Positions 2,396 to 20,312 of a stretch of 64,000 nucleotides of DNA are shown one piece after another. Source of the DNA: an uncultured virus (IMG/VR IMGVR_UViG_3300029787_000004) (taxonomy: Duplodnaviria; Heunggongvirae; Uroviricota; Caudoviricetes); IMG/VR virus record IMGVR_UViG_3300029787_000004. The stretch is one strand, 5' to 3'. Position 1 is the stretch's first letter. Each line of letters opens with the position of its first letter. A program made the translations under genes and the position numbers. Below the pieces are notes generated by a model. The model did no database searches and was not told the DNA's origin. It saw nothing but the letters and a program-made list of their open reading frames with translations.

Positions 2396-2513
2396 GAAAC
2401 GTGGTTGTATTTCCCGTCAAGAGGTGACAGTTATTGGGGAAGATGCTGCACTACATGTTATCAAGACTATGGTGCCAGATAAGGACAATTATGACGTATA
2501 TTTGGCGTTTTAG
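2349..2513 (+). CDS. small hypothetical protein (MTQTPNRYTIVWKK...)
   Basis: ORF track 2325..2513; ATG at 2349; overlaps previous gene by 47 bp. Confidence 0.5.
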   Translation: MTQTPNRYTIVWKKNKKRGCISRQEVTVIGEDAALHVIKTMVPDKDNYDVYLAF

Positions 2514-2549
2514 TGCTGTTTTCCCTTAAAATAACGTTTTAAATGGTAT

Positions 2550-2557
2550 TATAAATA
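2550..2557 (+). promoter_or_regulatory. T4-type late promoter TATAAATA
   Basis: Exact gp55 consensus, but lies in an AT-rich intergenic tract where chance matches are plausible. Confidence 0.45.
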
Positions 2558-2576
2558 TATGTCACTGTTTTATAAG

Positions 2577-2620
2577 TTATCCACAATCGTTGTGGAAAAG
2601 TGTTATTAACCTGTGGAAAC
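2577..2620. other. cluster of three DnaA-box-like 9-mers (putative replication origin element)
   Basis: TTATCCACA 2577-2585; TGTGGAAAA 2591-2599 (= TTTTCCACA); TGTGGAAAC 2612-2620; AT-rich 2521-2576 alongside. Confidence 0.6.
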
Positions 2621-2678
2621 GTGCTGTAATTGTTGTTATTATTGTTGTGAAATGTGTTGAGGTGTTGTGATCTAAGCG

Positions 2679-2707
2679 AGCGTATCATGAGACGAGAGTT
2701 TTGTCAA
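2679..2707 (-). promoter_or_regulatory. minus-strand sigma70-type promoter facing the DnaA-box cluster
   Basis: Reverse strand TTGACA (2707-2702)-17 bp-TACGCT (2684-2679). Confidence 0.5.
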
Positions 2708-2725
2708 CCCCACCGCCGATTTTTC

Positions 2726-2775
2726 TCTGAGACCCACACAAACCACTTGACAGTCTCAGAAATTTATTATATAAT
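2726..2775 (+). promoter_or_regulatory. perfect sigma70 consensus early promoter with a stem-loop around the -35
   Basis: TTGACA 2747-2752, 17 bp, TATAAT 2770-2775; inverted repeat TCTGAGAC (2726-2733)/GTCTCAGA (2753-2760). Confidence 0.85.
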
Positions 2776-2799
2776 AAGAGGAACATCACCACCAGACTG

Positions 2800-2988
2800 A
2801 TGAACACTAGCCACGCAGAAAAGCAGCAGATTCGTGTGACACTAGACTTTGAAGTCTTTGCGGACTTTGATGTTCATCAGATAGACTTTGACAAGGTTTT
2901 TGATATTGGCGGCGGAGAGAACTTGACAGTCACTGTCGAAGATTTGTCAGAAAATGTAGAAGAACTCTGGGAAGCAGCATATCACTAA
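2800..2988 (+). CDS. small acidic hypothetical protein (62 aa)
   Basis: ORF track; directly downstream of a consensus promoter. Confidence 0.7.
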   Translation: MNTSHAEKQQIRVTLDFEVFADFDVHQIDFDKVFDIGGGENLTVTVEDLSENVEELWEAAYH

Positions 2989-2992
2989 GGGA

Positions 2993-3021
2993 TTGACAGT
3001 TTCTCTGAAAAGTGTTATAAT
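2993..3021 (+). promoter_or_regulatory. perfect sigma70 consensus promoter with extended -10
   Basis: TTGACA 2993-2998, 17 bp, TG-n-TATAAT 3013-3021. Confidence 0.85.
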
Positions 3022-3025
3022 CCAC

Positions 3026-3185
3026 AGTGTCACTCATTGACACTTAGAGACAGCAGTTAGGGCGCGGTTGATGATATCGTGCCGTGGCGCGTAGGGGCGT
3101 ATATAAAAACGCTAACTACCCTAACCTACAACGAACCCAAAACGCGAACTAAATATACTTCATCTCAAAAAAATTCTGAGATTTA
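3026..3185 (+). ncRNA. candidate structured ncRNA / long leader
   Basis: Non-coding, GC-rich, starts at the expected TSS of the 2993 promoter; several complementary blocks (see findings). Confidence 0.4.
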
Positions 3186-3208
3186 GAAAGGTCCTATTAG
3201 GTTCAGAG

Positions 3209-3562
3209 ATGGAAAAAAATTTCCCAGAAAAATTTGAACGCCCATGGGGTTATTACGAGAATCTCCTAGAAACTAAACTGTATAAGGTTAAGAGACTTGT
3301 AGTATATCCGGATCAACAGTTATCATTACAATACCATTTTCATCGTGCAGAGTATTGGACGGTAGTAAAGGGTAGTGGTTATGTTACTATTGGGGAAGGG
3401 TGTTATCATGCCACAGCTCACAGTCAATACAAAATAGATGCTAAACAGCATCATCGGTTGAAGGGCGGTGAACACGGCATAACTATTATAGAGGTTCAGT
3501 TAGGATCTCAATGTAATGAAGAGGACATTGTAAGATTAAAAGATGATTACAAACGAGTATAG
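3209..3562 (+). CDS. cupin, mannose-6-phosphate isomerase type II (ManC C-terminal-like)
   Basis: RPWGYY, LSLQYHFHRAEYWTVVKG, HHRL, IIEVQLG...EEDIVRLKDDYKR motifs. Confidence 0.85.
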   Translation: MEKNFPEKFERPWGYYENLLETKLYKVKRLVVYPDQQLSLQYHFHRAEYWTVVKGSGYVTIGEGCYHATAHSQYKIDAKQHHRLKGGEHGITIIEVQLGSQCNEEDIVRLKDDYKRV

Positions 3563-3740
3563 ATTTCACATTTACGCTAAGGATAAATGTCTTTATTCGA
3601 GTCTAACAAATGAAGAGTTTAGAGAGACCTGGGAAACGCTGAAAGGCATGGTGGGTCTCATGAAAACAGACTATAAAGAGTCTGATTTGAACTATGAGAA
3701 AGTCAAGTTAGTGAAGAGTTCGGAAGAGTCTTCTTATTGA
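3543..3740 (+). CDS. conserved hypothetical protein (65 aa)
   Basis: ORF track; fills the gap up to the next promoter. Confidence 0.65.
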   Translation: MITNEYRFHIYAKDKCLYSSLTNEEFRETWETLKGMVGLMKTDYKESDLNYEKVKLVKSSEESSY

Positions 3741-3765
3741 CATATCATAGATACACTGGTAGAAT
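3737..3765 (+). promoter_or_regulatory. sigma70-type promoter
   Basis: TTGACA 3737-3742, 17 bp, TG-n-TAGAAT 3757-3765. Confidence 0.75.
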
Positions 3766-3788
3766 TGAAATGTAGGTTATTCAAACTT

Positions 3789-4565
3789 ATGGCAAAAGGA
3801 TTTACAGTTAAAGCAAAGACCCCTCCGGTACAAAAGAAGGAGGAGTTTGACATTGATGGAATTAAAGCTCGGATGAAAGGCAAGAGCATTGTGTTCTGTC
3901 TTCCAGGTCGCGGCGTCTCATATATCTTCTTGAAGAACTTCGTGCAACTGTGCTTCGACATGGTTCAGAATGGAATGAGTATTCAGATTAGTCAGGATTA
4001 CTCTTCCATGGTGAACTTTGCACGATGCAAGTGTCTCGGGGCAAATGTGTTGCGTGGACCAAACCAGATTCCCTGGGATGGTAAGTTGCAGTATGACTAT
4101 CAGTTGTGGATTGATAGTGACATTGTATTTGACACGACGAAGTTCTGGCAATTGTGCGATATGGCGATTGCTGAGGATGGCACAGAGAAAGAGATTGTTT
4201 CTGGTTGGTATTGCACAGAAGATGGGAAGACCACTTCCTGTGCTCACTGGTTGGAGGAAGAGGACTTCCGTAAGAGTGGTGGTGTCATGAACCATGAAAC
4301 TCTGGAATCCATCTCAAAGCGCCGCAAACCGTTCACAGTTGACTACATTGGTTTCGGTTGGTGTATGATCAAGAAGGGTGTGTTTGAGCACGGAGAGATG
4401 AAGTATCCATGGTTTGCACCAAAGATGCAAGAGTTTGAATCTGGTGAGGTTCAGGACATGTGTGGAGAGGATGTATCATTCTGTCTCGATGCAATTGCAG
4501 CAGGTTTTGATATCTGGGTGGATCCAAGGATTCGCGTTGGTCATGAAAAGACACGGGTGATTTGA
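3789..4565 (+). CDS. GT-A fold glycosyltransferase-like protein
   Basis: ARCKCL...LWIDSD (DxD), GFGWCMIKKGVFE, GEDVSFC, RVGHEK motifs; start moved to ATG 3789 downstream of the promoter. Confidence 0.75.
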   Translation: MAKGFTVKAKTPPVQKKEEFDIDGIKARMKGKSIVFCLPGRGVSYIFLKNFVQLCFDMVQNGMSIQISQDYSSMVNFARCKCLGANVLRGPNQIPWDGKLQYDYQLWIDSDIVFDTTKFWQLCDMAIAEDGTEKEIVSGWYCTEDGKTTSCAHWLEEEDFRKSGGVMNHETLESISKRRKPFTVDYIGFGWCMIKKGVFEHGEMKYPWFAPKMQEFESGEVQDMCGEDVSFCLDAIAAGFDIWVDPRIRVGHEKTRVI

Positions 4566-5482: not shown

Positions 5483-5881
5483 GTGCCACAACCAGTCTCA
5501 CGGGCATTTAAAGACATTTCTTTGTCTTTCATGAAGCACCCGATCACTCGGGATCTAATTGCGCTGTCAAATGAGCGTGCTATTTCTCGTTCTATAAGGA
5601 ATCTGGTGCTTACTGCCCTAGGAGAGCGTCCTTTTCAACCAAGATTAGGATCTCAAATTTCTAGAAGTCTTTTTGAACTGTTAGATTATGGTACAGCGTC
5701 CGTAATTCAAAAAGATATTGAAGTTACAATTAAAAATTTTGAACCAAGAGTGGAAATTAACACTATTGAAGTGAAACCTGAGTACGATCAAAACGGATAT
5801 AACGTATTGGTCTCATATTTTATCGTTGGGCAACCTAGAACCCCGGTACAATTAGAGTTTATCCTTCAAGTAACAAGATAA
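5483..5881 (+). CDS. gp25: baseplate wedge subunit gp25
   Basis: FKDISLSF, AISRSIRNLVLT..GERPFQPRLGS, FEPRV motifs; precedes gp6. Confidence 0.92.
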   Translation: MPQPVSRAFKDISLSFMKHPITRDLIALSNERAISRSIRNLVLTALGERPFQPRLGSQISRSLFELLDYGTASVIQKDIEVTIKNFEPRVEINTIEVKPEYDQNGYNVLVSYFIVGQPRTPVQLEFILQVTR

Positions 5882-7779
5882 TGCCACTCACAAAATTCTC
5901 AGATCTAGATTTTGATCAAATTAAGGTACAAATAAAGAATTATTTGCGCTCAAATTCTAATTTTACCGACTTTGACTTCGAAGGATCCAACTTTTCGGTC
6001 CTAATTGACACGTTAGCATATAATACTTACATTTCTTCGTATAACGCCAACATGGTGGCAAACGAAGTTTTCATTGATAGTGCCACATTGAGAGAAAATG
6101 TGGTCTCTCTCGCAAGAAACATTGGATATTTACCATCTTCTAAGAAGGCATCAAAAGCGACTGTAAGCTTCTTTGTTGATACAAGCACTCTGACTACCAA
6201 TCCTACGACAATGACCCTTAGAGCGGGTCTGGTGGCAGTCTCAGATAGTTTTGGTGGGTCTAATTTTACTTTCTGCATACCCGAATCAATTACTGTTCCA
6301 GTAAATGAGGATCTTGCCTTTTTTAATGAAATTGAAATCTTTGAAGGAACGTTTATATCGAAAGAATATACAGTAGACGACTCAAATATTGATCAAAAAT
6401 TTGTAATTCCCAATTCAAATGCAGATACTTCAACTTTATCTGTGCAAGTCAAGGAAAGTTCCTTTGATCTTGCCTCAGTTAAGTACGAGTTAGCACAAAG
6501 TGTCATTGATATATCAAATACATCTAAAATTTTCTTACTTCAAGAGATTGCTGATGAGAAATATGAACTTCTTTTTGGTGATAACGTATTTGGTAAACGT
6601 CTAGAAGACGGAAATGTGATCACAATGAACTATGTAATCACTAATGGTGATATTGCCAATGGTGTATCCAACTTTACCTTCTCTGGAAGGTTATTTGACA
6701 ATAATGAACGAGTAGTAACGACTGGTGTTTCCGCAATTTCGGTAAATAATGCTTCTGTTGGTGGTGGAGACATTGAAACTGTCTCTTCTATTCGTAAATA
6801 TGCGCCTTTGAAGTATGCTGCACAAAATAGAGCAGTTACAACCCAAGATTATGAGGTCATGACCAAGCAAGTGTTCCCAGATACCGAATCTGTGTCTGCT
6901 TTTGGCGGGGAAGATCTTGATCCCCCTCAATATGGCAAAGTTTTTATTGCAATTAAACCAACAGGTGGTAGTTATCTTTCAAATTTCGTAAAATCTTCAA
7001 TTGTTTCAGATTTAAAGAAATTTACTGTCGCTGGTATCGTACCACAGATTGTTGACCTTAAATATTTGTATATTGAGGTTGATACAAATGTATATTATAA
7101 CACAAATCTCTTCCCATCTGCATCAGGATTAAAAACAAACGTTATCGAATCGTTAGAAGCATATTCTAAGACATCGGAATTGAATTCTTATGGTGCTAGA
7201 TTGAAATATAGTAAACTTTTAAGAACAATTGACGATACTAACTCTGCAATCACTTCAAACATCAGTACGATTCGTATGAGAAGGGACATGAGACCATCTC
7301 TTAACGAATTTGCAGAATATGAGGTTTGTTTTGGAAATAGATTCTATGTTTCGGGCGATTCAAACATTAAAACAAGTGGATTTTTAGTTGAAGGTTACTC
7401 TGGACAAGTGTTCTTATCAGATGTTCCATATTCTGATGAAAAAACTGGTACTATTGATTTAATTCGATTAATTTCTCAATCTGAAAAACAAGTTCTTAGA
7501 AAAAATGTTGGAACTGTCGATTATATCAAAGGTGAGATTCTTTTAAACCCAATTAAGATTATTAACACTACAAAAGTCGAATCTGAGTTCCCAATTATTG
7601 AAATTGAAGCAAATCCGTATTCAAATGACGTTATCGGATTACAGGATCAATTTTTGCAACTAGATATAAGTAAGAGTAACGTTACTGTAATCTCCGATAC
7701 CATGTCTAATGGTGCCGATATCTCAGGATCAAGATATACAGTGTCTTCCAGTTTTACCAACGATAACATCACGCGATAA
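5881..7779 (+). CDS. gp6: baseplate wedge subunit gp6
   Basis: LDFDQIK...FTDFDFEGSN, AQNRAVTTQDY, PPQYGKVFIAIKP. Confidence 0.95.
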   Translation: MPLTKFSDLDFDQIKVQIKNYLRSNSNFTDFDFEGSNFSVLIDTLAYNTYISSYNANMVANEVFIDSATLRENVVSLARNIGYLPSSKKASKATVSFFVDTSTLTTNPTTMTLRAGLVAVSDSFGGSNFTFCIPESITVPVNEDLAFFNEIEIFEGTFISKEYTVDDSNIDQKFVIPNSNADTSTLSVQVKESSFDLASVKYELAQSVIDISNTSKIFLLQEIADEKYELLFGDNVFGKRLEDGNVITMNYVITNGDIANGVSNFTFSGRLFDNNERVVTTGVSAISVNNASVGGGDIETVSSIRKYAPLKYAAQNRAVTTQDYEVMTKQVFPDTESVSAFGGEDLDPPQYGKVFIAIKPTGGSYLSNFVKSSIVSDLKKFTVAGIVPQIVDLKYLYIEVDTNVYYNTNLFPSASGLKTNVIESLEAYSKTSELNSYGARLKYSKLLRTIDDTNSAITSNISTIRMRRDMRPSLNEFAEYEVCFGNRFYVSGDSNIKTSGFLVEGYSGQVFLSDVPYSDEKTGTIDLIRLISQSEKQVLRKNVGTVDYIKGEILLNPIKIINTTKVESEFPIIEIEANPYSNDVIGLQDQFLQLDISKSNVTVISDTMSNGADISGSRYTVSSSFTNDNITR

Positions 7780-10700
7780 TGTTAGAAAAAAGAGTAAAAA
7801 TCCAGTCCGTAGTTGAAAATCAACTACCTATTTTTCTTGGTGCTGAACTGGAAGGTGCTAGTGATTTTTTAAAGACTTATTATAAATCGGTAGAATATCA
7901 AGGAGGTCCAATAGATATTCTTGAAAATATTGATCAATATAGAAAAGTTGGAACTTATACTTCTATTGTTGGATTTACAACTGTAACTTCTAACATTAAT
8001 ATTGAAGATTCTACAATTAATGTAGGCAATACTTCTGGATGGCCAGAAAAATATGGATTATTAAAGATTAATGACGAAATTATTTCATATACAGGAAAAA
8101 CAAACACAACTTTTACGGGTTGTATCAGAGGTTTCAGTGGTATTACCAGTTATCGTGGAAATAGTGGTCCAGATGAACTGATTTTTCAAGATAGTGAGGC
8201 AGACGAGCATGTAAGTGCTGATCAAGTCGAAAATATTTCATCTCTTTTCTTAAAAGAGTTTTACAAAAAATTAAAAACTCAATATTTACCTGGTTTAAGT
8301 AATACTCAGTTACATGATGAATTAAATGTATCAAACTATCTTATTCAAGGTAGTGACTTTTATAGATCAAAAGGAACTTCTGATGCATTTGAAATTCTGT
8401 TCAAAGCTTTATATAATGAAGATGTAAATGTATTAAAACCACAGGATGACCTGTTTGCGCCATCGGATGCACAATACAGCAAAATTATTAGATTAAATGT
8501 AGAACCGACAGATCAATCAATTGATACTACGGAAGCATATTTGACAGGATTCATTACTAAGAACATTTATCAAGAAAATTCTGATGGTGAGGTCATTGCT
8601 TCTGGATCTGTTGTTAAATCAGAAAGATTTCGTGTAGATGGTAAAGATTTTTTCCAAATTGATTTAGATTACTCAGAACCAAAAGATATTAATGTTGTAG
8701 GATCAATTTATGGTAATTTCAAAATTACTCCTCAAACAAAGGTAGTTGGTAACGTTTCTGTTGCATCTACATTTATTGATGTTGAATCCACCATTGGTTT
8801 TCCCTCTAAGGGAGAACTTCAAGTCCTATTTTCAAATGATGATATTGGCATTGTTTCATATACCTCAAAAAATGTAACTCAATTCTTAAATCTTGATGGA
8901 GTAGTTAATGGTGTCTTAGATAAGCAAGAGATTTTTCAAAATATTAAATCATATGGAATCTTATCTGATGGTAGTGAATTTGAATTTAGGATTAAAGGGT
9001 CTCTTGGTGCTCTTAACATTAAGGCACCAGACCTAGCAACTCCTTATTTTGTAGAAGGAGATGTAATTAAAAATCAATCTTTGGGATATTCAAAGAGTAA
9101 TATTGTAACGGATTCATTGTTATCAAATGAAACGTCCAGATTTGATATCAAACATGCAAAAATTCTTAACCAAAACCAATTAGGTCAAAACCCAAATATT
9201 ATTTCTCTGTATCAGATTGAAACCAAACAACAACATGACCTGAGTATTGGAGACTCTGTTCAAGTTATTACTACTACTGGATTGGAAACAAGTGGTGTGG
9301 TCAATAATATTATCACAGAATTCACTTTTGATGTTTCTGGATTGTCTGGATTTGATCCTGATAGAGGTGGGGAAGTTAGAAGATTGATCACAAAGGTCAA
9401 TTCCCAAAATAATGTTGTTAATAATTTACCTGCCAATGTTGTAAAATCCTTTTACGATTCTAATGAATCGGTTTATATCGCAGCACACTCATTACCAAAA
9501 TATGGTGATCCAATTGATCCCAAAACAGGTAATGTTGTATTATCTGATAATGGTAGGAGCTCAACTGCTCCTCTTATCCTAAGTGGAGATACAATTGATT
9601 ATACCGGACATGGATTTTTTAGTGGAGATGAGGTATATTATCGTCCAGATAAATTTGTAGAACGTTTAAGTGGTTATGGAGAACCGATTGCAATTACTAC
9701 TGAAAGAACTCTTGGTAATTTGTCGGAAGGAAAATATTTTGTTAAGAGAATTGATGCCGACAGTTTTAAATTGTCAGAATCCAAAGCAAATATTATTACT
9801 AACAAATTTGTTGATGTTACTGGAATTGCTAGCAACCAAGTTATCTTCCCCATCAGATCTTATGACAATCAATTAGACAGTTCCTATGGAATTACCAAAG
9901 TTCCTAGGTTTATTGAAGTCCCTGATAAAAAAGTTGATATCATTCCTGGTAAAATTGGAGTTTTAATCAATGGTGTAGATGCACATTCATATAAGTCAGA
10001 AGATTATTGTTTTTATGGTAATTTAACTGGTATTAACGTTTTAGCGGGTGGATCTAATTATGATGTTATTAATCCACCAAATTTAATCATCTCTGACAAT
10101 ATTGGAACTGGTGCAACAGCAACAACCACAGTTGTTGGTGTTTTGGAAGAGATTGAAGTAGATGATAGTGGTTATGATTTTTTAGATGAACCAGTTGTTG
10201 ATATTTCTGGTGGTAATGGAAGAGGAGCAAAAGCAAAGGCAAATCTTAGATCGGAAAAAACAGTTGCTTTTACTGATGTAAGTGCTGGTGGTGGAAATGT
10301 CTCATTAACCGATAATACAATTGGATTCACTACATACCATCGTTTTAGAAATGCAGATGCTGTCGTTTATAATGCCAATTCATTAACTCCTCTTGGAAAC
10401 TTAGTCAATAATTCAATCTACTATGTAAATGTTAGATCCCTCAATGAGGTGACCCTACATGGTCATAGAAGCACTGCTCTTGCTGGTGTTGGTACAATTA
10501 GTATCACCAGTTTTGGACAAGGCAACCAATACTTTACTACGGTAAGTGAGAAAAAAATCTTATCATCAGTTACGATAGAGTCTGGTGGTGAAGGATACAG
10601 TAGCAATGTAATTAAAGTATCATCAACTGGAATTAACACCAGTACAGATCAAATTTCTTTCATTAATCATGGATTCAATACCGGCGAAACAGTTCAATAT

Positions 10701-13700
10701 AGATTTGAAGGATCATCTATTTCTGGATTGACCACAGATCAGCAATATTTGGTTACACGTGTAGATGATAATCTGTTCAAATTATCATCAGCTGGCATTG
10801 GAACTCAATTCTCATCTTACAATTTCGATAACAAAATATTTGCTGACTTAACATCTGTTGGATCTGCTAGCACTTATATTTTCAACTATCCTGATATTAA
10901 TGTTACTATCACAGGCAACATTGGTATTACAACAACAAATAGTCTTACCTTCAAATCAAAGTTAAAACCAAAATTTAGAGGATCAATCACTAAAATTAAT
11001 TTAGAACGTGGCGGTGTTGCATATGGATCTTCTGAGGTCTTAAATTTTGAACGTCAACCATTAATTACTTTTGAGAATGGTAGTGGAGCTCAACTAAAAG
11101 CAGTTGTTGAAGGATCAACAATTAAAGATGTTTTTGTGCTTAATGGAGGAAAGGGATATAATTCTTCTCCTGAGTTGGTCGTATCTGGTTTAGGAAGAGA
11201 TGCTAAATTGACTCCAATTTTAACAGGAGGAAGAATTATTTCTGTTAAAATTAATGATGGTGGATCTGGTTTTAGCACCAACACAACTTTTGTTGATGTT
11301 ATTGCAAATGGACAAGGTGCTAAGGCATCAACAAAAATTAAATCTTGGAATGTTAACCAATTTGAACAGAAAAAGAATCTGCTTAGTGTAGATGATTCTC
11401 TAATTGCTGCTAGTGGTAATGAACACTCAAAAGGAACTTATGTTTCAATTTCTGCTCCCAGAGCATTAAGAGAAATTATCTATGCAAAGAATGAAGATGG
11501 AACAGATGCATTTGGTGCAAACACTTTTGATTTGCTCAAACAGAATGGACTTGAAATTCCATCTTTGAATCACTCTCCAATTATTGGATGGGCAAACGAT
11601 GGACATCCAATTTATGGTCCATATGCATATAGTAATATTGACGGTGGAGCTATTATAGCAATTAAATCTGGATATGAACTTAATCCCAGTATTGAAAGAC
11701 CAGGTTCATTCCCTGTTGGATTCTTTGTAGAAGACTATTCTTTCCAAAACAGTGGGAACTTAGATGAGCACAATGGAAGATTCTGCAAAACTCCTGATTT
11801 CCCCAATGGAGTCTATGCATATTTTGCGACAATAAACAGTGGCAAACCTAATGGAGATGGTCCGTTTAAAAACTATAAAGAACCTGTATTCCCATATTTG
11901 CTTGGTGATTCATATAATTCAGTACCATCTGAATTTAATTTTGATAGAAAAAATAATCAAATTGACTTTGAATATGTTGATTTGTTTAGAAATACTAAAC
12001 CATCAAAAAGCAGTGGACTTTATGGATACAATGAGTATTTGAATGATAGTACAAGAGACGCTAAACAAGAGTCTATCATTGAATCCACTAGGAAAGGTAG
12101 AATCACTGATTATACTATTGTTTCTGCTGGAACCAGTTACAGAAGTGGTGATACCATTAATTTATCAAAACAACCTCTTTATGGTAGAGGTGCAAGAATA
12201 AGTGTTGGTAGAATCGTTGGTAAAGATATTGTATCAATTGGTTCTTCGACTATTACTTCCGAAAACTTTGAATTGTTTGTTGGTGGAGGATTAGCAATTG
12301 GATATTGCACTGCACCTCATAATTTTGAGAATAAGAACCGTGCAGTTATTTCTGGATTATCAACTCATTCTTATGCAGATCTGAATGGCACTCAAAATAT
12401 TACCAACACCCAAAGAATTTGGATTCTAAATGAATTCCTTGATTCCCCTACCAATACTGGTTTAACCACTAACATCCACCTTAACGGACCGTATGACCCC
12501 CTCTACGTTAGGGAAAACTCAATCATTGGTATTGGACAGTCGGTTGAAAATCTTGAACAATTAAAAGTTCTTAATGTTGATCCACTAAACTCTGTAATGA
12601 GAGTTCAAAGAAATTATAATGGAACAGTTGGATATGCATATTCTTCTGGAACGATTGCTCTCGATATTCGTAACAAGTTTGCATTTGATGTTGGGTTTAC
12701 CACGTTTACGAGCAATCCCCCAACATTCCAGAGATATTTTGATCCATCACAAGTAGTTGGTCTTGGAACAACAGCTTCTGTTGTTGGTGTTGGAACAACA
12801 ATTGCATATCAGACACATAATAATATTGCACCCCCTCATTTACCAGAAAATACTGATTATCAACCAGGAACTGCTTATACAAGTAGAATTATTCCTATCA
12901 AGACTGTTTTCATCCCCAATCACTCATTCAATACTGGCGATACGTTAACTTATTCTAATGGTGGTGGAACTTCTGTCGAAGTTTCTGATGGCATCGGCAC
13001 ATTTGTTCTTGCAGATCAATCCACCGTATATGCAATCAAAGAGTCTAGTAATTTACTTGGAATTTCAACCACAAAGGTTGGATTGGGTTCTACTGGATCT
13101 TTTGTTGGTCTTGGATCAACTGCGATTCAATTAGCATTTACAGTTTCTGGTGTCGGAGTAACTCATAGTTTCAAAGCAGAAACTAATCCTATTACAGGAA
13201 ATGCCAATATCTATGAAGCTGTCTTAACAACAAAAGAAGCACATGGATTAACGTTCAACGATAATATTCGAGTTGTCTCTATACCAGATATACAGAAAAA
13301 TATATTTGTTCAGTATAACGATTATAATCGCAGAATAGTATTTGATAGAAAGAAATTTGAACCATCTGGCATCACTTCTTTCACTAATACAATTAATGTT
13401 CCAAGTCATGATTTGAATAGTGGTGATAAAGTAATCTACACGACCACTGGAAACGCACCTGTCGGACTTTCCGATCAAAGCATGTATTATGTTATTGCAA
13501 TTGACTCAAATAATTTAAAATTAGCACAAAATAAAGTTGATGCGGTGGGTTTAAACCCAACACCAGTTTCCTTAGGTAGCACTGGTTCAGGAGAGCACTT
13601 TGTATCTTCAATTAACCCCAAAGTTAATGTTACACGTGGTAATCTCGTATCGTTTGCCACAACAGATTCTTCATTAGCAATTAATGTTTCTGGAAGTAAG

Positions 13701-16700
13701 TTATCTGCCTTTGATCTTGGTTTCTACAAAGATCCCGAATACAGAGATCAATTCATCAGCACAAAAGAATCAAAATCTTTTGAAGTTCAAGGAATTGGAA
13801 CTATTGGAGTAACAAATCCATCTGCTGTAAATTTAAAAGCAAGCGCATCTATTCCAGAAGTATTATATTACAAATTTACTCCAATTAATATTAATCTTTC
13901 TCCAACATCAAAAACTGAAATATTTGAGGATACTGAGCAAAGTTTTTCCAACGTTATTAATGTTGTTAATAGTGTATATCAGGTTGATGAGTATCCGACT
14001 GGTATTACCACAACCGAATTTAAATTCAATCTAAATTCAGAACCAGAAACATCTTCTTATACTTCAATAACTGATGGTAGTTTCTATTATACCCATAAAT
14101 CACCTGACGCAACAGGAGCAATTGATACCCTTAACATTAAAACTAATAGTGTAAACTATACGGAGTTGCCAGGAATAACCTCAATCGGATCTACTACTGG
14201 TTCTGGTGGATTGGTTAGACTTAATGGTGATATGGGGTCTATTCTCAAAACTCGTAAGAAGAGTGTTGGTTACAACTATCCATCAGATCCAACTCTTAAA
14301 GTAGTTACTAATGTTCCAGAAATTCTTAGAATTGAAGAATTAAATTCTTTTGATAGTGTTGGAATTTCTTCTGGTGGTAATGGATATAATATTGAACCTG
14401 GTTTAGTTGTTATTGATGCACTTACTAACAAAAAAGTTGAAAATGTAGTTCTTCAAGCAGAAGTTAAAAACGGTTCTGTTTCCAAGATCAATATCAAGGA
14501 AAATGCTAAGAATCTTTCTGATGTTGCTCCTAACATCATTACTGTCAATAACCCCAATGGTGTTGGTATTAATACTGTTGGATTCAATACAGTCACCAAA
14601 GAAGTTACTATTCAGTTAACTACTGGATTCTCAACATCTACATCTTTCCCATTCGTAGTTGGTAAAAAAGTATTCATTGAAGGTATTGGTATTTCATCAG
14701 AGGGAACTGGTTATAACTCCCCAGATTATAACTTCAAGTTCTTTGAAATTACTGATGTCGATCCGAATATTGGTGGTATTGGATCTGTAACTTATCAGTT
14801 AGATTCTACTGTAACCAATCCCGGAACATATGTAACTACAAAATCTTCTGGAAGAATTATTCCCTTTGAAGATTTCCCAATTTTTACCCCAAATCTCAAA
14901 AGGAACAATTTCTCCATCAACGAAGATGTTGTAATCACAAATGTCTTAGATACAAAAAATGGAAAAGTTTCATCTTGGGATAATTCCAATAAAATTCTAA
15001 AAGTCAATTCTACCAAAGAAGTTAATATTGGTGATACTGTAAAGGGTCTTGGTTCCGGAACAATAGGTAAAGTATCTGAAAAGATCAACGTTGATTCTTT
15101 TTATGATATTGTTGGTGTCGAAGAAATTCGTTTGGGGTGGCAGAAAGATACTGGCAAACCAAGTGTAAATGCTCAAAGAATAATTGATAGTGATTATTAT
15201 CAATATTTCTCATATTCTCTAAAATCACAAATTGCATATGATACTTGGAATGATATTGTTTCTTCCATGAATCATACCAGCGGATTTAAGAAATTTGCTG
15301 ATTTGCAAATTGAATCTAGGGATGAAAATTTCAATAAGGCATCGGTAGCTAGTAATGATGTTGAGTTATTTGTAGACCTAGTTTCTCAATTGGAAACCTA
15401 TTGTAGATATGATTTTGATTTTGTTTCTGAGACTTCAAAACTTATTTCCGGATCTTTCCTCTCTGATGAAATTTTAACAAGAAATATTCCAATTGCAGAT
15501 TTTGAAGAATCTGTTGGTAATAGAGTATTGAGCATTGACAATATCTCCAATCAATTTAATAATGTGCCGAGATCAACTAGATTTGAAATTGTTGATACTT
15601 TTGGAATTTCAGGAACTCGTTTTAGAAAATATTTTATCTTAACCAACGATAAACAATTTATCGACACTAGAAGAATGGAAATCGTCGAACTTATGATCGA
15701 CGATGCTGGTAATGGATATATTCAAGAGTATGCTATTACAGATGGTGCAACGGAATTAAATGGATATTTTGATTTTATTATCAAAGGTAGTGAAGGTCAA
15801 TTATTGTTCTATCCAAATGATTATGACACAAATGATTTTGAACTTCGTGGACTAGTCTACAATGTAGACAGAGACGTTCATCATGCCGTTGGTATTGCCA
15901 CGTTAGTTGGTATTCACACTGTTGGTGATATTGTTGAGGTAGTTTCAAAAGGAAGTAAGATTAACCCTGGTGTTACGACAGCAGTTAATATTCTTTCTAT
16001 TCCTGTATCACAATATGATGCTGGTCATAAGTTCCAAGTGCAGATGAGTGCAGGATCCAATTATGAAGTTGTAAATATCAACTCAATTCATAATAATAAT
16101 TTAACATATGGCGTTGAGTATGCCAATATGTCAAATCTGGATAGAGATACTACAACAGCAGTTGCTGGTGGTATTGCAACGTTTAGTTCTTACGTTTCTG
16201 GTGGTGTTTATTATCTCAATGCAACTCCCCAGGCAGGCGTTGTTGGAACTGGTATTAGTTTTAATATCTTTGCTCAACAATTCTTAGGTGGCGTATCTAG
16301 TCTTGGCATTGGTACAATCCAATTAACCACTGGTGATCTTCAAGCACAATATTCTGATATTCCAGCACTAGGATCTCCTGGTATTACTACTATTGCCACT
16401 TTTGGTAATGGTACTGATAAATCAGAAGCTGCTCATATTTTAGTTAACATTCATGATGTTACGAACGATCGATATGAGTTACTTGAAGGCATCTACATGA
16501 TTGATAGTTCTAAGATAATTTATCAATCACAGTATGGTAATGTGGATGATGATTATAATCAGGAAAATCCAGGTATTGGTACTATTACTGGTATTGTTGA
16601 TGGAAATAATTACAATGTAATCTATGTTGCTCCACCTCTTGCAAATGTGAGAGTCAAAACTCTTATTACTTCTGCTTCTGAAACCAAAGGTGGTGTTGAT

Positions 16701-19700
16701 GAACTTTTCCAATTGAATCTTTTTGACACCAAGGTTGAAAATTTCAGAGGATCTTATACAAATACACAAGCAGATGTTAAGAGAGCATTTGAGTTAACTC
16801 ATGGTGGATTTGATATCTTTGGTAAGGACTTTGATCCTAGTGATCCTTTGGTTGTTGATCTTGATGAAGATTCAATTTTACTACCTAATCACTTCTTCAC
16901 ATCTGGTGAAAGATTGCAGTATAACCCAACTGGTTCTGGAACAACATCATCTATTGGAATCGGAACTACAACAATTGCTGGATATGGAACCACTGATAAA
17001 CTTCCTGAGTATGTGTATGCCATTAAAGTTGATGACAAGTTAATTCGTCTTGCTGAAACACCATCAAAAGCACTTTCGTCTAAGGTTGGGGATTATTTAA
17101 ATCTAACATCTTCTGGTATTGGAACTATACACCAATTCCTATCACAAGATCAAAACACTAAGTGTATTGTTGCTCTTGACAATAATATTCAAGATCCAGT
17201 CATTCCTGGTAACGTTGAGCACTCTTTGGTTGAGCAAATGTCTTTTGGTGGAGAATTCATGAGACTTTCTGGTATAACTTCATTCTTTGGTGGAGATTTA
17301 CTGAAAGTTGATAAAGAATTCATGAAGATTAAACAAGTTGGATTTGGAAGCACCAACGTTATTGCCGTTCAGAGAGGATGGATGGGAACTGGGTTTGGTA
17401 CTCACTCTCTTGGTGCCAAAGTTGAAAAATATGAAGGTGGTTACAATATTGTTGGAAATACTATCAATTTCTACACTGCTCCTGGTGGATTAGTTCCAAG
17501 AGAAACTACTGACCCAGATGATCTAGATTATACTGGAATTCAAACCACATCAGTATTCCAAGGAAGAGCTTTCCTAAGAAATGGTTTAGTCGGAACTTCT
17601 ACACACACTTATGCAACCAATTACTTATTTGATTCCGTATCAACAGAATTAACCGGTGTTGGTAAAACCTTCACCATCAAACAAGATGGAATTAACGTTG
17701 AAGCGTTTAGTACCACTCATGGTTTGATCTTAATTAATGATATTGCACAGATTCCATCTCAGGGTTCTAGAATTAATGATTTCGAGTTTATTGAAAACGC
17801 AGGTATCACATCTGTTGTATTCAGTGGATTCGCAGCATCTGTTACAAGTGATGTAAACACAGGTAGTATTCCTGTTGGTGGTATCATTGTTTCAGTTGGT
17901 TCTAGTCAAGGTTATGGTTATCAACCATTAGTGGCTGCTGGCGGAACTGCTAATGTCAATGGATTTGGAACTGTAACCTCTATTAGTATTGGTAACAGTG
18001 GTTCTGGATATAGATCGGGAATTGCAACTCTTGATGGAGTTGTTCGTGAATTGTCTTATAATGTTGGTCTTAGAATTAGTGATATTGATACTGTTAATGT
18101 AGCATCTATTGGTACGGCAATTGTATCAAATGGTAATATCACTAGTGTTAGTATTACAAATCCTGGCACTGGATATACATTTAGTAATCCTCCAATTGTT
18201 GTCTTTGACGAACCAATTCCATATACACGCATTCCGTTAGTTTATCATCCAGATTCACCTGGATCTAAAATTGGAACAAATGCATATATTGATATCAAAG
18301 TATCACAAAACTCTAATGTATCCAGTTTTAATATTATTAATAGTGGATATGGGTTTAAAGTTGGAGAAATTCTAACAGTTCCAAAAGGTGGAGTTACTGG
18401 TATCCCAACTTATAGTATTTCTACTACTCCTATTGGATTTGGTACTAATAGATATAAAGTTGAGTTTGCAGAATACGATGCTGTTTCTGGTATTATTACT
18501 GCAACTATTGGTATCCACACTATTGTTACAACTGATCAAATTACTTTGGTTGATGAGTCGTTGATCTTCTCTTGTGATAGTGATCAATTCAAACAAAAGA
18601 TTGGTTATCCAAGACCAACTGATCCTGCATCAGGAACTGGTCGCACAGTTACTGCGATTTCTTCCGATTCAATTACATTCGATGTTGGTCCTGCTCAATC
18701 AGGTTCCTCATATATCCATAGATTTGTTGGTGCAGGAGTAAGTGATGTTAGAATTAATGTTAATAGAATTTCTTCCGATAAATTTACAGGATGGAGATTT
18801 GGTGATTTAGACGTATTTGATAAACTGGATTCCTTCTTTGATGGAAATAAACAGGTCTTCACCATGAGAAAAGAAGGATCACCAACTTCTATTAGAGCAC
18901 AAAAAGGGTCTTTAATTGACGTTGAACAAACTATTCTCGTGTTCTTGAATAACATTTTACAACAACCAGGAGTTGCATATCGATTCAATGGTGGTTCAAA
19001 CATTACATTTGTAGAAGCACCAAAAGTTGGTGACACATGTTCAATTATGTTCTATCGCGGAACTGGTGACGTTGATGTTCTCAGCAGAGATATCATTGAA
19101 ACGATTAAAACCGGGGATACAGTTAAAATTAAGTCAGGTGACAATCAAAATTCTTTCGTATTTAATCAGGATACAAGATTTGTAGCTGGTATTACAACTG
19201 CTGATACTTTCGCCACATCTCCATATCAAGGTCCCGGTTTAAGAACTGATGTAACAGTTGAAAGACCAATGACGTGGTGTAGGCAACAGGAAGATTTATT
19301 CTTAGATGGAAATCCTGTAACAAAAGATAGAGACCTTTACACTGCGAGAATTTTCCCAGAAGCACATATTATTAAACCAGTTGGTTTAGGTTCCACTGAA
19401 ATCTGGGTGGATAGTGTTGCCTCATTTGACACTTATCCAGAATCTCTAAGAAGTAACTTGCAAACAGTACAAGTTATGAATCAAGATCTTAAAATCGGAG
19501 CAGCTGCTACCGCTATTGTGTCTGGTTTTGGCACTGTCTCTTCAATCAGTATCACAAACTCTGGTCTTGGATATACGATGACACCATTAGTTTCTATTGC
19601 TAATAGTGTTGGTCTTGGTTCTGCAACCAGAGCAACTGCTACCGCATCCATGACTGGAACAGCAATTACTTCAATTACTATAAGTAATGCTGGTGCTGGA

Positions 19701-20312
19701 TATACATTTAGTAATCCACCTGTCGTTCTTCTTACTCCTCCAAACTTTGAAGTAGAGGAAATTAAGAATGTAAACTACGCGGGTGATTATGGAGTTATTA
19801 GTGGAGTTGCCACGGCATCTTCTACAAAACTAGTATTTGATCTTCTTATCCCATCAGATTCTATTTTGAGGAGCACCGCATTCATGGGTCCTGGTGCTGC
19901 AAGAACAATTCCGAATATTGGAAGTGGATACCCATTTGTTGTATTTGATTCCAACATCGGTCAAGGAGTCACATCACTTGATCTTGGTGGTTCTGTTCTT
20001 GGAATTGGAACAACTTGTTTAGATAATGTATATGAAGCAGCATCTGTCTCTATTGCAACAACGGAAGCAGTTGGAATCGGAACAACTTATGTTGTCAAGG
20101 TCACAGTAAATGTTGATAGTCTCAATGGCATAACAGGAATTGGTTATAGTCAATTCTTTGGTAGATATAGTTGGGGTCAACTAAAAACGTTTAGTAGATC
20201 TGGTATTGCAAAAACATTTACACCTGCACTAAATAATGGATTTACCGGAATATCAACCGGACCATTGATTCTGAGGAGTTTACCCTTGAAATCAGTTGGT
20301 TATCTAACATAA
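7779..20312 (+). CDS. gp7: giant baseplate wedge initiator gp7-like protein (4177 aa)
   Basis: Position between gp6 and gp8; FYRSKGT...ILFKALY and HTSGFKKFADL motifs; many GxGY beta repeats. Confidence 0.85.
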   Translation: MLEKRVKIQSVVENQLPIFLGAELEGASDFLKTYYKSVEYQGGPIDILENIDQYRKVGTYTSIVGFTTVTSNINIEDSTINVGNTSGWPEKYGLLKINDEIISYTGKTNTTFTGCIRGFSGITSYRGNSGPDELIFQDSEADEHVSADQVENISSLFLKEFYKKLKTQYLPGLSNTQLHDELNVSNYLIQGSDFYRSKGTSDAFEILFKALYNEDVNVLKPQDDLFAPSDAQYSKIIRLNVEPTDQSIDTTEAYLTGFITKNIYQENSDGEVIASGSVVKSERFRVDGKDFFQIDLDYSEPKDINVVGSIYGNFKITPQTKVVGNVSVASTFIDVESTIGFPSKGELQVLFSNDDIGIVSYTSKNVTQFLNLDGVVNGVLDKQEIFQNIKSYGILSDGSEFEFRIKGSLGALNIKAPDLATPYFVEGDVIKNQSLGYSKSNIVTDSLLSNETSRFDIKHAKILNQNQLGQNPNIISLYQIETKQQHDLSIGDSVQVITTTGLETSGVVNNIITEFTFDVSGLSGFDPDRGGEVRRLITKVNSQNNVVNNLPANVVKSFYDSNESVYIAAHSLPKYGDPIDPKTGNVVLSDNGRSSTAPLILSGDTIDYTGHGFFSGDEVYYRPDKFVERLSGYGEPIAITTERTLGNLSEGKYFVKRIDADSFKLSESKANIITNKFVDVTGIASNQVIFPIRSYDNQLDSSYGITKVPRFIEVPDKKVDIIPGKIGVLINGVDAHSYKSEDYCFYGNLTGINVLAGGSNYDVINPPNLIISDNIGTGATATTTVVGVLEEIEVDDSGYDFLDEPVVDISGGNGRGAKAKANLRSEKTVAFTDVSAGGGNVSLTDNTIGFTTYHRFRNADAVVYNANSLTPLGNLVNNSIYYVNVRSLNEVTLHGHRSTALAGVGTISITSFGQGNQYFTTVSEKKILSSVTIESGGEGYSSNVIKVSSTGINTSTDQISFINHGFNTGETVQYRFEGSSISGLTTDQQYLVTRVDDNLFKLSSAGIGTQFSSYNFDNKIFADLTSVGSASTYIFNYPDINVTITGNIGITTTNSLTFKSKLKPKFRGSITKINLERGGVAYGSSEVLNFERQPLITFENGSGAQLKAVVEGSTIKDVFVLNGGKGYNSSPELVVSGLGRDAKLTPILTGGRIISVKINDGGSGFSTNTTFVDVIANGQGAKASTKIKSWNVNQFEQKKNLLSVDDSLIAASGNEHSKGTYVSISAPRALREIIYAKNEDGTDAFGANTFDLLKQNGLEIPSLNHSPIIGWANDGHPIYGPYAYSNIDGGAIIAIKSGYELNPSIERPGSFPVGFFVEDYSFQNSGNLDEHNGRFCKTPDFPNGVYAYFATINSGKPNGDGPFKNYKEPVFPYLLGDSYNSVPSEFNFDRKNNQIDFEYVDLFRNTKPSKSSGLYGYNEYLNDSTRDAKQESIIESTRKGRITDYTIVSAGTSYRSGDTINLSKQPLYGRGARISVGRIVGKDIVSIGSSTITSENFELFVGGGLAIGYCTAPHNFENKNRAVISGLSTHSYADLNGTQNITNTQRIWILNEFLDSPTNTGLTTNIHLNGPYDPLYVRENSIIGIGQSVENLEQLKVLNVDPLNSVMRVQRNYNGTVGYAYSSGTIALDIRNKFAFDVGFTTFTSNPPTFQRYFDPSQVVGLGTTASVVGVGTTIAYQTHNNIAPPHLPENTDYQPGTAYTSRIIPIKTVFIPNHSFNTGDTLTYSNGGGTSVEVSDGIGTFVLADQSTVYAIKESSNLLGISTTKVGLGSTGSFVGLGSTAIQLAFTVSGVGVTHSFKAETNPITGNANIYEAVLTTKEAHGLTFNDNIRVVSIPDIQKNIFVQYNDYNRRIVFDRKKFEPSGITSFTNTINVPSHDLNSGDKVIYTTTGNAPVGLSDQSMYYVIAIDSNNLKLAQNKVDAVGLNPTPVSLGSTGSGEHFVSSINPKVNVTRGNLVSFATTDSSLAINVSGSKLSAFDLGFYKDPEYRDQFISTKESKSFEVQGIGTIGVTNPSAVNLKASASIPEVLYYKFTPININLSPTSKTEIFEDTEQSFSNVINVVNSVYQVDEYPTGITTTEFKFNLNSEPETSSYTSITDGSFYYTHKSPDATGAIDTLNIKTNSVNYTELPGITSIGSTTGSGGLVRLNGDMGSILKTRKKSVGYNYPSDPTLKVVTNVPEILRIEELNSFDSVGISSGGNGYNIEPGLVVIDALTNKKVENVVLQAEVKNGSVSKINIKENAKNLSDVAPNIITVNNPNGVGINTVGFNTVTKEVTIQLTTGFSTSTSFPFVVGKKVFIEGIGISSEGTGYNSPDYNFKFFEITDVDPNIGGIGSVTYQLDSTVTNPGTYVTTKSSGRIIPFEDFPIFTPNLKRNNFSINEDVVITNVLDTKNGKVSSWDNSNKILKVNSTKEVNIGDTVKGLGSGTIGKVSEKINVDSFYDIVGVEEIRLGWQKDTGKPSVNAQRIIDSDYYQYFSYSLKSQIAYDTWNDIVSSMNHTSGFKKFADLQIESRDENFNKASVASNDVELFVDLVSQLETYCRYDFDFVSETSKLISGSFLSDEILTRNIPIADFEESVGNRVLSIDNISNQFNNVPRSTRFEIVDTFGISGTRFRKYFILTNDKQFIDTRRMEIVELMIDDAGNGYIQEYAITDGATELNGYFDFIIKGSEGQLLFYPNDYDTNDFELRGLVYNVDRDVHHAVGIATLVGIHTVGDIVEVVSKGSKINPGVTTAVNILSIPVSQYDAGHKFQVQMSAGSNYEVVNINSIHNNNLTYGVEYANMSNLDRDTTTAVAGGIATFSSYVSGGVYYLNATPQAGVVGTGISFNIFAQQFLGGVSSLGIGTIQLTTGDLQAQYSDIPALGSPGITTIATFGNGTDKSEAAHILVNIHDVTNDRYELLEGIYMIDSSKIIYQSQYGNVDDDYNQENPGIGTITGIVDGNNYNVIYVAPPLANVRVKTLITSASETKGGVDELFQLNLFDTKVENFRGSYTNTQADVKRAFELTHGGFDIFGKDFDPSDPLVVDLDEDSILLPNHFFTSGERLQYNPTGSGTTSSIGIGTTTIAGYGTTDKLPEYVYAIKVDDKLIRLAETPSKALSSKVGDYLNLTSSGIGTIHQFLSQDQNTKCIVALDNNIQDPVIPGNVEHSLVEQMSFGGEFMRLSGITSFFGGDLLKVDKEFMKIKQVGFGSTNVIAVQRGWMGTGFGTHSLGAKVEKYEGGYNIVGNTINFYTAPGGLVPRETTDPDDLDYTGIQTTSVFQGRAFLRNGLVGTSTHTYATNYLFDSVSTELTGVGKTFTIKQDGINVEAFSTTHGLILINDIAQIPSQGSRINDFEFIENAGITSVVFSGFAASVTSDVNTGSIPVGGIIVSVGSSQGYGYQPLVAAGGTANVNGFGTVTSISIGNSGSGYRSGIATLDGVVRELSYNVGLRISDIDTVNVASIGTAIVSNGNITSVSITNPGTGYTFSNPPIVVFDEPIPYTRIPLVYHPDSPGSKIGTNAYIDIKVSQNSNVSSFNIINSGYGFKVGEILTVPKGGVTGIPTYSISTTPIGFGTNRYKVEFAEYDAVSGIITATIGIHTIVTTDQITLVDESLIFSCDSDQFKQKIGYPRPTDPASGTGRTVTAISSDSITFDVGPAQSGSSYIHRFVGAGVSDVRINVNRISSDKFTGWRFGDLDVFDKLDSFFDGNKQVFTMRKEGSPTSIRAQKGSLIDVEQTILVFLNNILQQPGVAYRFNGGSNITFVEAPKVGDTCSIMFYRGTGDVDVLSRDIIETIKTGDTVKIKSGDNQNSFVFNQDTRFVAGITTADTFATSPYQGPGLRTDVTVERPMTWCRQQEDLFLDGNPVTKDRDLYTARIFPEAHIIKPVGLGSTEIWVDSVASFDTYPESLRSNLQTVQVMNQDLKIGAAATAIVSGFGTVSSISITNSGLGYTMTPLVSIANSVGLGSATRATATASMTGTAITSITISNAGAGYTFSNPPVVLLTPPNFEVEEIKNVNYAGDYGVISGVATASSTKLVFDLLIPSDSILRSTAFMGPGAARTIPNIGSGYPFVVFDSNIGQGVTSLDLGGSVLGIGTTCLDNVYEAASVSIATTEAVGIGTTYVVKVTVNVDSLNGITGIGYSQFFGRYSWGQLKTFSRSGIAKTFTPALNNGFTGISTGPLILRSLPLKSVGYLT

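Follow-up and report, generated by a model that had tools for sequence, protein, structure and literature searches.

A candidate single-copy cis-element, conserved in sequence rather than in fold, upstream of gp25 in T4-like cyanomyoviruses

Introduction

Few viruses in the ocean are as abundant as the T4-like cyanomyoviruses, and we know of no chart of their replication origins or of most of their non-coding control elements. The closest described systems are the replication origins of phage T4, the promoter-early stem-loops (PeSLs) of other T4-type phages, NtcA-activated promoters and several non-coding RNAs of cyanophages. A T4 origin, as far as the accessible text of Kreuzer and Brister (2010) describes it, takes up ~100 bp and consists of a promoter and an A+T-rich unwinding element, with an R-loop RNA that primes the leading strand; oriE uses an early-mode promoter, R-loop formation at oriF takes place without a specific sequence, and most early DNA synthesis starts in late-gene regions. 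Here we describe positions 3054-3182 of a 64,000-nt stretch of DNA from an uncultured virus (IMG/VR record IMGVR_UViG_3300029787_000004; hereinafter the whole stretch is designated the window), which by sequence comparison are the local copy of a ~130-bp, single-copy, non-coding cis-element common to T4-like cyanomyoviruses.

In the available part of the T4 literature, oriE, oriF and oriG resemble this element in being ~100-130 bp long, in having a host-polymerase promoter that reads into a non-coding stretch with an A/T-rich end, and in lying beside late structural genes. They differ in that no motif is common to them and the unwinding element of oriF can be swapped, whereas the cyanophage element has a core of 12-21 nt that is invariant across genera; T4 also has at least five origins, whereas the cyanophage element is single-copy and known from sequence alone. 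PeSLs, in the portion of Comeau et al. (2014) that is accessible, combine a near-perfect σ70 promoter with a stem-loop at the border of a variable cassette in a hyperplastic region, and the window has a similar layout, with the promoter at 2993-3021 next to a hairpin at 3026-3044. By eye, no such stem-loop accompanies the two further strong promoters within the first 9 kb of the window. The same portion of that paper makes no mention of cyanophages and presents PeSLs as occurring in many copies per genome and as defined by promoter plus stem-loop, in contrast to a unique C/A-rich core without a conserved stem.

NtcA-activated class II promoters place a 14-bp site ~22-24 bp from a TA-rich box, an arrangement with a counterpart in the element, and cyanophages carry 1-16 predicted NtcA sites each, according to the accessible text of Sullivan et al. 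(2010). The CfrI antisense RNA and the manA, wcaG and glnA motifs of Rfam are, as far as the available descriptions go, likewise non-coding and present in T4-like cyanophages; they are defined by structure or antisense position, the element by its linear sequence. Among the roles considered below, we tentatively favor a replication start site that depends on an early transcript, like oriE/oriF of T4, which is suggested by analogy and which we regard as possible.

Results

A non-coding sequence shared by cyanophages

The first-pass annotation of the window, made from the sequence alone, presented this locus as a perfect promoter driving a GC-rich, foldable segment free of open reading frames (ORFs). 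The main signal of the locus, which had gone unnoticed there, is the DNA-level conservation of positions 3094-3189 in other cyanophages. When positions 2700-3600 were used as a blastn query, matches were limited to Synechococcus phages and marine-virus records, and 3094-3189 was the sole part of the 901-nt query that matched other isolate phage genomes, the flanking genes not being conserved; one marine-virus record (H4) matched a stretch within the cupin gene instead. The matched sequence is unannotated intergenic DNA in S-SSM7 and Sf-FS3 and lies beneath a 72-aa 'hypothetical' call in S-SCSM2R.

A shorter, 53-nt query (3098-3150) matched 134 phage records at 135 places (by name, 105 Synechococcus, 17 Cyanophage, 10 Prochlorococcus and 2 Marine), with at least 90% identity over ~32 nt across genera, and no feature is annotated under the match in 56 of the 60 matches listed. 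The exact 19-mer CCCTAACCTACAACGAACC (3119-3137) is present in at least 120 IMG/VR contigs, and a sister pattern with another 3' half in at least 120 further contigs. Orientation and removal of duplicates left a set of 233 distinct loci; one locus (L029), a coding chance match, was excluded. The 12-mer CCCTAACCTACA occurs once in the window and once each in Syn9, P-SSM4 and S-SSM7, with one exact copy in P-SSM2 and variants differing by one or two letters in S-RSM4 and S-PRM1. No match with one mismatch or fewer was found in S-PM2 and P-HM2, yet both have, by eye, a diverged but collinear intergenic region 5' of gp25. The P-HM2 record (L358, 3469-4267) has a 'toxin' and a PAAR-motif protein annotated between the diverged element and gp25.

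The 19-mer was not found in prokaryotes (one genome each of 185,579 species), nor was the 12-mer in five complete Prochlorococcus and Synechococcus genomes. A single one of 201 host-family genomes contains the 12-mer, within a ribosomal-protein gene, suggesting a chance match. A host-derived sequence or an attachment site was rejected in view of the absence of the 19-mer from the 185,579 species together with this single chance 12-mer among the 201 genomes.

No description of the element was found in the searchable full text of the literature, which does not cover the Syn9 transcription-start-site map, and the 12-mer string itself appears in three papers that are unrelated, judged from their titles and the starts of their abstracts. 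In our assessment it is a cis-acting region of a phage, for control or initiation, and not something categorically new.

Layout of the element

Element coordinates are counted from the first C of the 12-mer (window 3119), and the frequencies in this section, where not stated otherwise, refer to 216 distinct loci comprising 105 of type A, 82 of type B and 29 of type C. Across lineages, the alignment contains no gaps between -20 and +60. At its center lies a C/A-rich core (A+C of 0.75 in the core region; Table 1), and directly behind it a 9-mer. Within a lineage this 9-mer does not vary; the other lineages have GAGGTGACA or AAGGTTCCC in its place, at equal length; P-SSM2 and S-RSM4 have further variants of it. 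Upstream of the core, AAAA occupies -14 to -11 in 95% of the loci within a segment of 0.90 AT content (-20 to -11), and the A-tract box lacks the T of the late-promoter word. The segment before it is a GC clamp (AT content of 0.25 at -30 to -21), and across the family the composition at -80 to -20 is G 0.30, T 0.32, C 0.20 and A 0.18 (G+T 0.62). The GC content that had been called rich in the window is indeed raised, modestly so (0.51 at 3040-3119 compared with ~0.39). The clamp, at about -30 to -20, is often a homopolymer of 7-11 C or, in other phages, of 7-11 G (L146, L169, L173, L187, L193, L240 and others), and the strand of the run is not kept between phages.

The left edge is marked by CAGT, which is found at -100 to -40 in 176 of 199 loci, compared with 9-62 loci for nine control tetramers, and peaks at -65 to -61. 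Its distance to the -10 box varies, indicating that the core, rather than the promoter, sets the place of CAGT. Downstream of the core, the family shows ATA at +34 to +36 (80% of loci) and AAA at +49 to +51 (72%), within a region of 0.69-0.80 AT content from +30 to +69. In relatives, the A-run/TTTCCCAG module of this region often holds the Shine-Dalgarno site of the next gene. Relatives can have two or three tandem copies of the module, which may be scars of cassette exchange. In the window the module was found locally and nowhere else, and neither a repeated promoter layout nor a second copy of the element layout was found.

Table 1 Features of the element and its surroundings in the window (frequencies as defined in the text)
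Feature	Position	Strand	Remarks
Early host σ70-type promoter	2993-3021	+	TTGACA 2993-2998, 17 nt, TATAAT 3016-3021; 12/12, TG before -10
5' hairpin AGTGTCA-ctcat-TGACACT	3026-3044	+	local to the window phage and near-identical relatives
CAGT motif	3054-3057	+	left edge of conserved element, ~65 nt 5' of core
Spacer, G/T-rich then GC-rich (GC clamp before A-tract)	3058-3098	+	composition kept, sequence variable
A-tract box TATAAAAA	3102-3109	+	fixed distance from core
Universal C/A-rich core ACTA CCCTAACCTACA	3115-3130	+	single copy; kept in all three lineage types
Lineage-specific 9-mer	3131-3139	+	here type A, ACGAACC plus 2 nt
CG/GAG block	3143-3148	+	here CGCGAA; CG at +24 to +25 in 82% of 216 loci
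CTAAATA, late-promoter word of the window phage	3149-3155	+	family-wide an 'ATA' box at +34 to +36
A-run/T-run module with flanking ATCTCA/TGAGAT	3162-3182	+	opens ~40-bp A/T-rich block
Second A-run/TTTCCCAG module	3212-3228	+	within first codons of cupin ORF; first copy 3164-3180
Cupin gene	3209-3562	+	Pfam MannoseP_isomer PF01050, E 1.8e-27; variable cassette, outside element
gp25	5483-5881		3' of cupin gene
gp6	5881-7779		3' of gp25

The element does not appear to encode a peptide. The gap was correctly described as free of ORFs, as none of 40 aa or more lies at 2989-3208 on either strand. By-hand reading of the conserved block finds no start codon, an invariant TAA in one frame, and the other two frames closed in type B or type C; a small-ORF reading was dropped for these reasons. 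No tRNA or tmRNA was found in the window.

Promoters at the element

The promoter claimed for the window is perfect (12/12) and carries a TG in addition. It is one of only two 12/12 matches in the first 9 kb, where the overall number of promoter-like sites (28) equals the shuffle mean (28.6). A promoter of at least 11/12 lies within 230 nt upstream of the element on the plus strand in 93 of 193 loci, compared with 16 of 193 downstream and 1 of 193 in antisense orientation, showing that many loci, though not all, have an early promoter that reads into the element. In Syn9, the promoter is followed immediately by a GC hairpin and then by the element. Public RNA libraries contain contigs of relatives that span the core in two cases, one of which is only guessed to be RNA; strand, ends and level are not readable from them, and DNA carry-over is possible.

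The CTAAATA at 3149 was also rightly recognized as a late-promoter word: it fits the late word of the window phage, (C/A)TAAATA, as expected of a T4-like late promoter, and all 11 copies in the window (3149 to 54541) lie on the plus strand, mostly 15-30 nt before the start codons of late genes. The copy at 3149 coincides with the ATA box of the family, and the cupin ATG is 54 nt away, which is longer than usual. As TAAATA is present at this place in just 19% of the loci, the late promoter is established for the window phage and not for the family. Variants ATAAATA and AATAAATA serve other late genes in the window.

Such signals could make the element a composite promoter/operator, in which the core would be a protein site on double-stranded DNA ~40 bp upstream of a start set by the ATA box, the A-tract would act as an upstream bend, and the whole would switch the first transcription unit after the early region. 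The indel-free block from -20 to +60, with its conserved sub-blocks at promoter-like distances, the genuine late-promoter word of the window phage and the position of the lineage-specific 9-mer, at the place of a -35 or an activator contact, agree with this explanation. So does the core itself, which reads CTA-N8-TAC and is thus one letter off the NtcA site GTA-N8-TAC given in the accessible text of Sullivan et al. (2010), with ~22-24 nt to a TA-rich box. However, the critical G is missing, and both the N8 and its flanks are invariant in a single-copy site, unlike those of NtcA; an NtcA-activated promoter, which would have GTA-N8-TAC with a variable N8, was rejected on this account. The operator explanation is further disfavored by the occurrence of one site per genome without a second copy of the layout in the window, by the low share of loci with the late word, by the lack of any upstream sequence common to the other late promoters in the window, and by a conservation far tighter than usual for factor sites. 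We consider it unlikely.

Presumed likenesses to antitermination boxA, Pho boxes, HLR1/RpaB sites, ECF-sigma -35 words and primase start triplets were set aside.

Absence of a conserved fold

The first-pass annotation had further described the segment as highly foldable, with three hairpins and mutually exclusive pairings, and had proposed a structured small RNA or a riboswitch-like leader for sugar-nucleotide genes. The words that make up these hairpins and pairings are all present in the window sequence, which can fold as described, but the fold is marginal (minimum free energy (MFE) of -43.1 kcal/mol, z -1.83, 7 of 200 shuffles equally stable) and is not kept in relatives. The 5' hairpin is missing from most homologues. 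The central hairpin GCGT/ACGC (3097-3112) forms at least three pairs in 14% of 194 loci, compared with 14% (sd 2%) when partners are permuted. The region of the 3' hairpin, ATCTCA/TGAGAT, is no more stable than expected (mean z -0.20, 111 loci), and pairing between the upstream G-rich words and the C-rich core equals that with shuffled cores (mean z -0.15, 158 loci).

Family-wide analyses give the same picture. Against mononucleotide shuffles (15 each, for 45 of 111 diverse loci), the MFE of the family stays close to expectation (z of -0.31 for the plus and -0.35 for the minus strand). RNAalifold predicts no pairs for 42 diverse homologues; by type, it predicts none for type A and, for types B and C, only an invariant AACCU/AGGUU mini-hairpin, which is also missing in S-RSM4 and P-SSM2. 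Mutual information between column pairs of the ungapped block reveals no Watson-Crick covariation. A search of the whole window against Rfam 15 returned no match at the gathering score, and at E-values up to 10 positions 2400-3800 gave snoRNA and miRNA noise only. Nothing was found at the element in the loci of fifteen relatives (39,882 bases), and neither there nor in the window was there a match to manA, wcaG, CfrI, glnA or the cyanobacterial Yfr RNAs. With neither a conserved fold nor covariation, the constraint on the element is one of linear sequence and of fixed distances.

The described hairpins of the window speak for a structured small RNA or a riboswitch-like leader for cupin genes, but since no structure is conserved this reading is for the most part refuted already, and the cupin gene is absent downstream of the element in most relatives, where the downstream gene differs from phage to phage. 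We regard this explanation as highly improbable. What remains of the earlier interpretation is the promoter, the late word and a strong conservation that concerns sequence and not fold.

The element could instead act in the early RNA as an unstructured recognition site, a single-stranded C/A-rich core in a leader or processed non-coding RNA that an RNA-binding protein of phage or host recognizes, or that engages in short-seed pairing, and that controls stability, processing or translation early in infection. An enriched, dedicated early promoter upstream, the asymmetry between strands (A+C 0.75 in the core region, compared with G+T 0.62 upstream), a core that is mostly unpaired by prediction (unpaired probability of 0.5-0.75, 45 loci) and an identity over ~32 nt that extends beyond usual transcription-factor sites would all suit such a role. 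On the other hand, no terminator or defined 3' end was found, an ungapped spacing of 80 nt is unexpected for unfolded RNA, S-SSM7-type copies have no promoter of their own, and the differing downstream genes argue against a cis leader for one gene family. No 12-nt complement was found in the host genomes covered (0 of 5 complete genomes, 0 reverse matches in 201 host-family genomes), and near-matches in phage genomes are no more frequent than those of the control. For a trans-acting small RNA, the searches for a 12-nt complement in these host genomes and in phage genomes thus gave no conserved target; in the window, no terminator-like site lies 3' of the element. We view an RNA recognition site as doubtful, if conceivable.

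Genomic setting

The window is assigned, from its sequence, to a T4-like cyanomyovirus. The element is located in intergenic DNA at the downstream end of the hypervariable early-gene region, and the same synteny, with the element a few kb 5' of gp25/gp6, is seen in P-SSM4, Bellamy, Syn9 and the window. Very large structural ORFs come after gp6; two of these, 7779-20312 (4177 aa) and 21885-30023 (2712 aa), presumably encode baseplate or fiber proteins. The genes on both flanks of the element change from phage to phage, and the downstream genes of S-SSM7, S-SCSM2R, Sf-FS3, P-SSM4, Bellamy, S-PRM1 and Syn9 are unlike each other. The contig of one relative runs straight from 3147 to 3787, indicating that this relative has neither the cupin gene nor the 65-aa ORF after it. 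The border of the cassette in this contig corresponds to the ATA/late-promoter box of the element and to the next early promoter (3737-3765).

Metagenome contigs tend to stop 0.1-4 kb upstream of the element, as 23 of 33 contigs longer than 15 kb do in a by-hand count among the IMG/VR matches listed (L004-L083), including one of 238,937 bp. The hypervariable early region, which ends at the element, is evidently where assemblies break.

This setting raises the question of whether the element is a recombination or cassette-shuffling module, a homology patch for swapping variable cassettes that persists for that reason, like PeSLs in other T4-type phages. The turnover of genes on both flanks, the contig that skips the cupin cassette, the duplication of the A-run/TTTCCCAG module in the window and in relatives, the concentration of contig ends less than 4 kb upstream (among the matches listed) and the promoter plus stem-loop, which is the layout of PeSLs in the accessible text, are in line with this idea. 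Nevertheless, PeSLs as portrayed in that text are multi-copy and dispersed while the core is single-copy, and a mere homology patch would not keep a 12-21-nt core invariant amid drifting neighbors. We therefore hold a shuffling module to be quite improbable.

The first-pass annotation had also tied the segment to a neighboring DnaA-box locus, a connection that is not borne out in the family: among 233 loci, the window's own is the single one with a strict DnaA box near the element, ~550 nt upstream, and relaxed boxes show no positional peak. The window's words, at 2571-2626 within the intergenic gap 2514-2799, are a perfect DnaA-box word TTATCCACA and two TGTGGAAA words, and they are followed by a G/T-rich run similar to what some relatives have in the upstream part of the element.

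Discussion

The single copy per genome, the conserved synteny, a conservation above that of neighboring genes and the rigid spacing over 80 bp point to a cis-site that is read by proteins on DNA rather than to a folded RNA. The same preference, for a protein-read site on double-stranded or unwound DNA, follows from the combination of a strong promoter reading in, a G/T-rich non-template strand and then A/T-rich DNA with the lack of a fold, an ORF and a terminator; this lack, together with the ungapped block from -20 to +60, would suit an assembly at the DNA level.

Among DNA-level roles, the leading one is the third option of the first-pass annotation, a primer or R-loop RNA at an origin, which is unproven. 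For a replication start site, host RNA polymerase would start at the early promoter and traverse the G/T-rich non-template stretch and the GC clamp, and the transcript would remain hybridized to the template. The hybrid would then be processed to a primer at the A-tract, core and A/T-rich block, followed by loading of the phage replisome, or of a protein with sequence specificity for the C/A-rich core of the displaced strand. The succession of a G/T-rich non-template strand, a GC clamp, a segment of 0.90 AT content and a ~40-bp block of 0.7-0.8 AT content fits a promoter-driven hybrid followed by an unwinding zone. The AT-rich blocks (-20 to -11 and +30 to +69) are separated from the promoter by the GC-rich spacer. 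Also in favor of a start site are the single copy and its synteny, the spread over 134 phage records, a conservation that outlives that of the flanking genes, the enriched early promoter and the position beside the late structural module, a kind of region where most early DNA synthesis of T4 begins.

Several observations weigh against such a start site. An invariant core would be without precedent in T4, because the R-loop of T4 oriF, in the accessible account, needs no specific sequence. No promoter of at least 11/12 lies upstream in 100 of 193 loci, the distance from promoter to core ranges from 38 to 224 nt, and S-SSM7-type copies follow directly on a stop codon and lie behind a hairpin of terminator-like form. 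Cumulative GC and AT skews in Syn9, P-SSM4 and S-SSM7 show no origin-like switch at the element, and the A/T-rich block also serves the next gene as its ribosome-binding region. The proposed kinship with T4-type origins is moreover drawn from sequence and analogy, and we put it forward as a tentative reading.

In its most specific form, the replication-start reading would make the element the first sequence-defined replication start or initiator-recognition site of marine T4-like cyanophages: a single origin driven by an early promoter, with a C/A-rich core read on the displaced strand, common to Prochlorococcus and Synechococcus phages, and with a lineage-specific 9-mer that maybe co-varies with its reader protein. 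We think this version could hold, with considerable doubt.

Whatever its role, the element is better conserved than the genes around it and separates the hypervariable early region from the structural module. For work on early replication or gene control it provides a concrete target of 12-21 nt that can be mutated, and it is a practical landmark to align and orient fragmentary contigs of cyanophages, a large number of which end a short way upstream. If the transcription-start map of Syn9 already has a transcript at the element, the novelty drops, although the family-wide conservation and the absence of structure would still be new. If the replication-start reading is true, the element would be the first replication start site of marine T4-like cyanophages to be defined by sequence.

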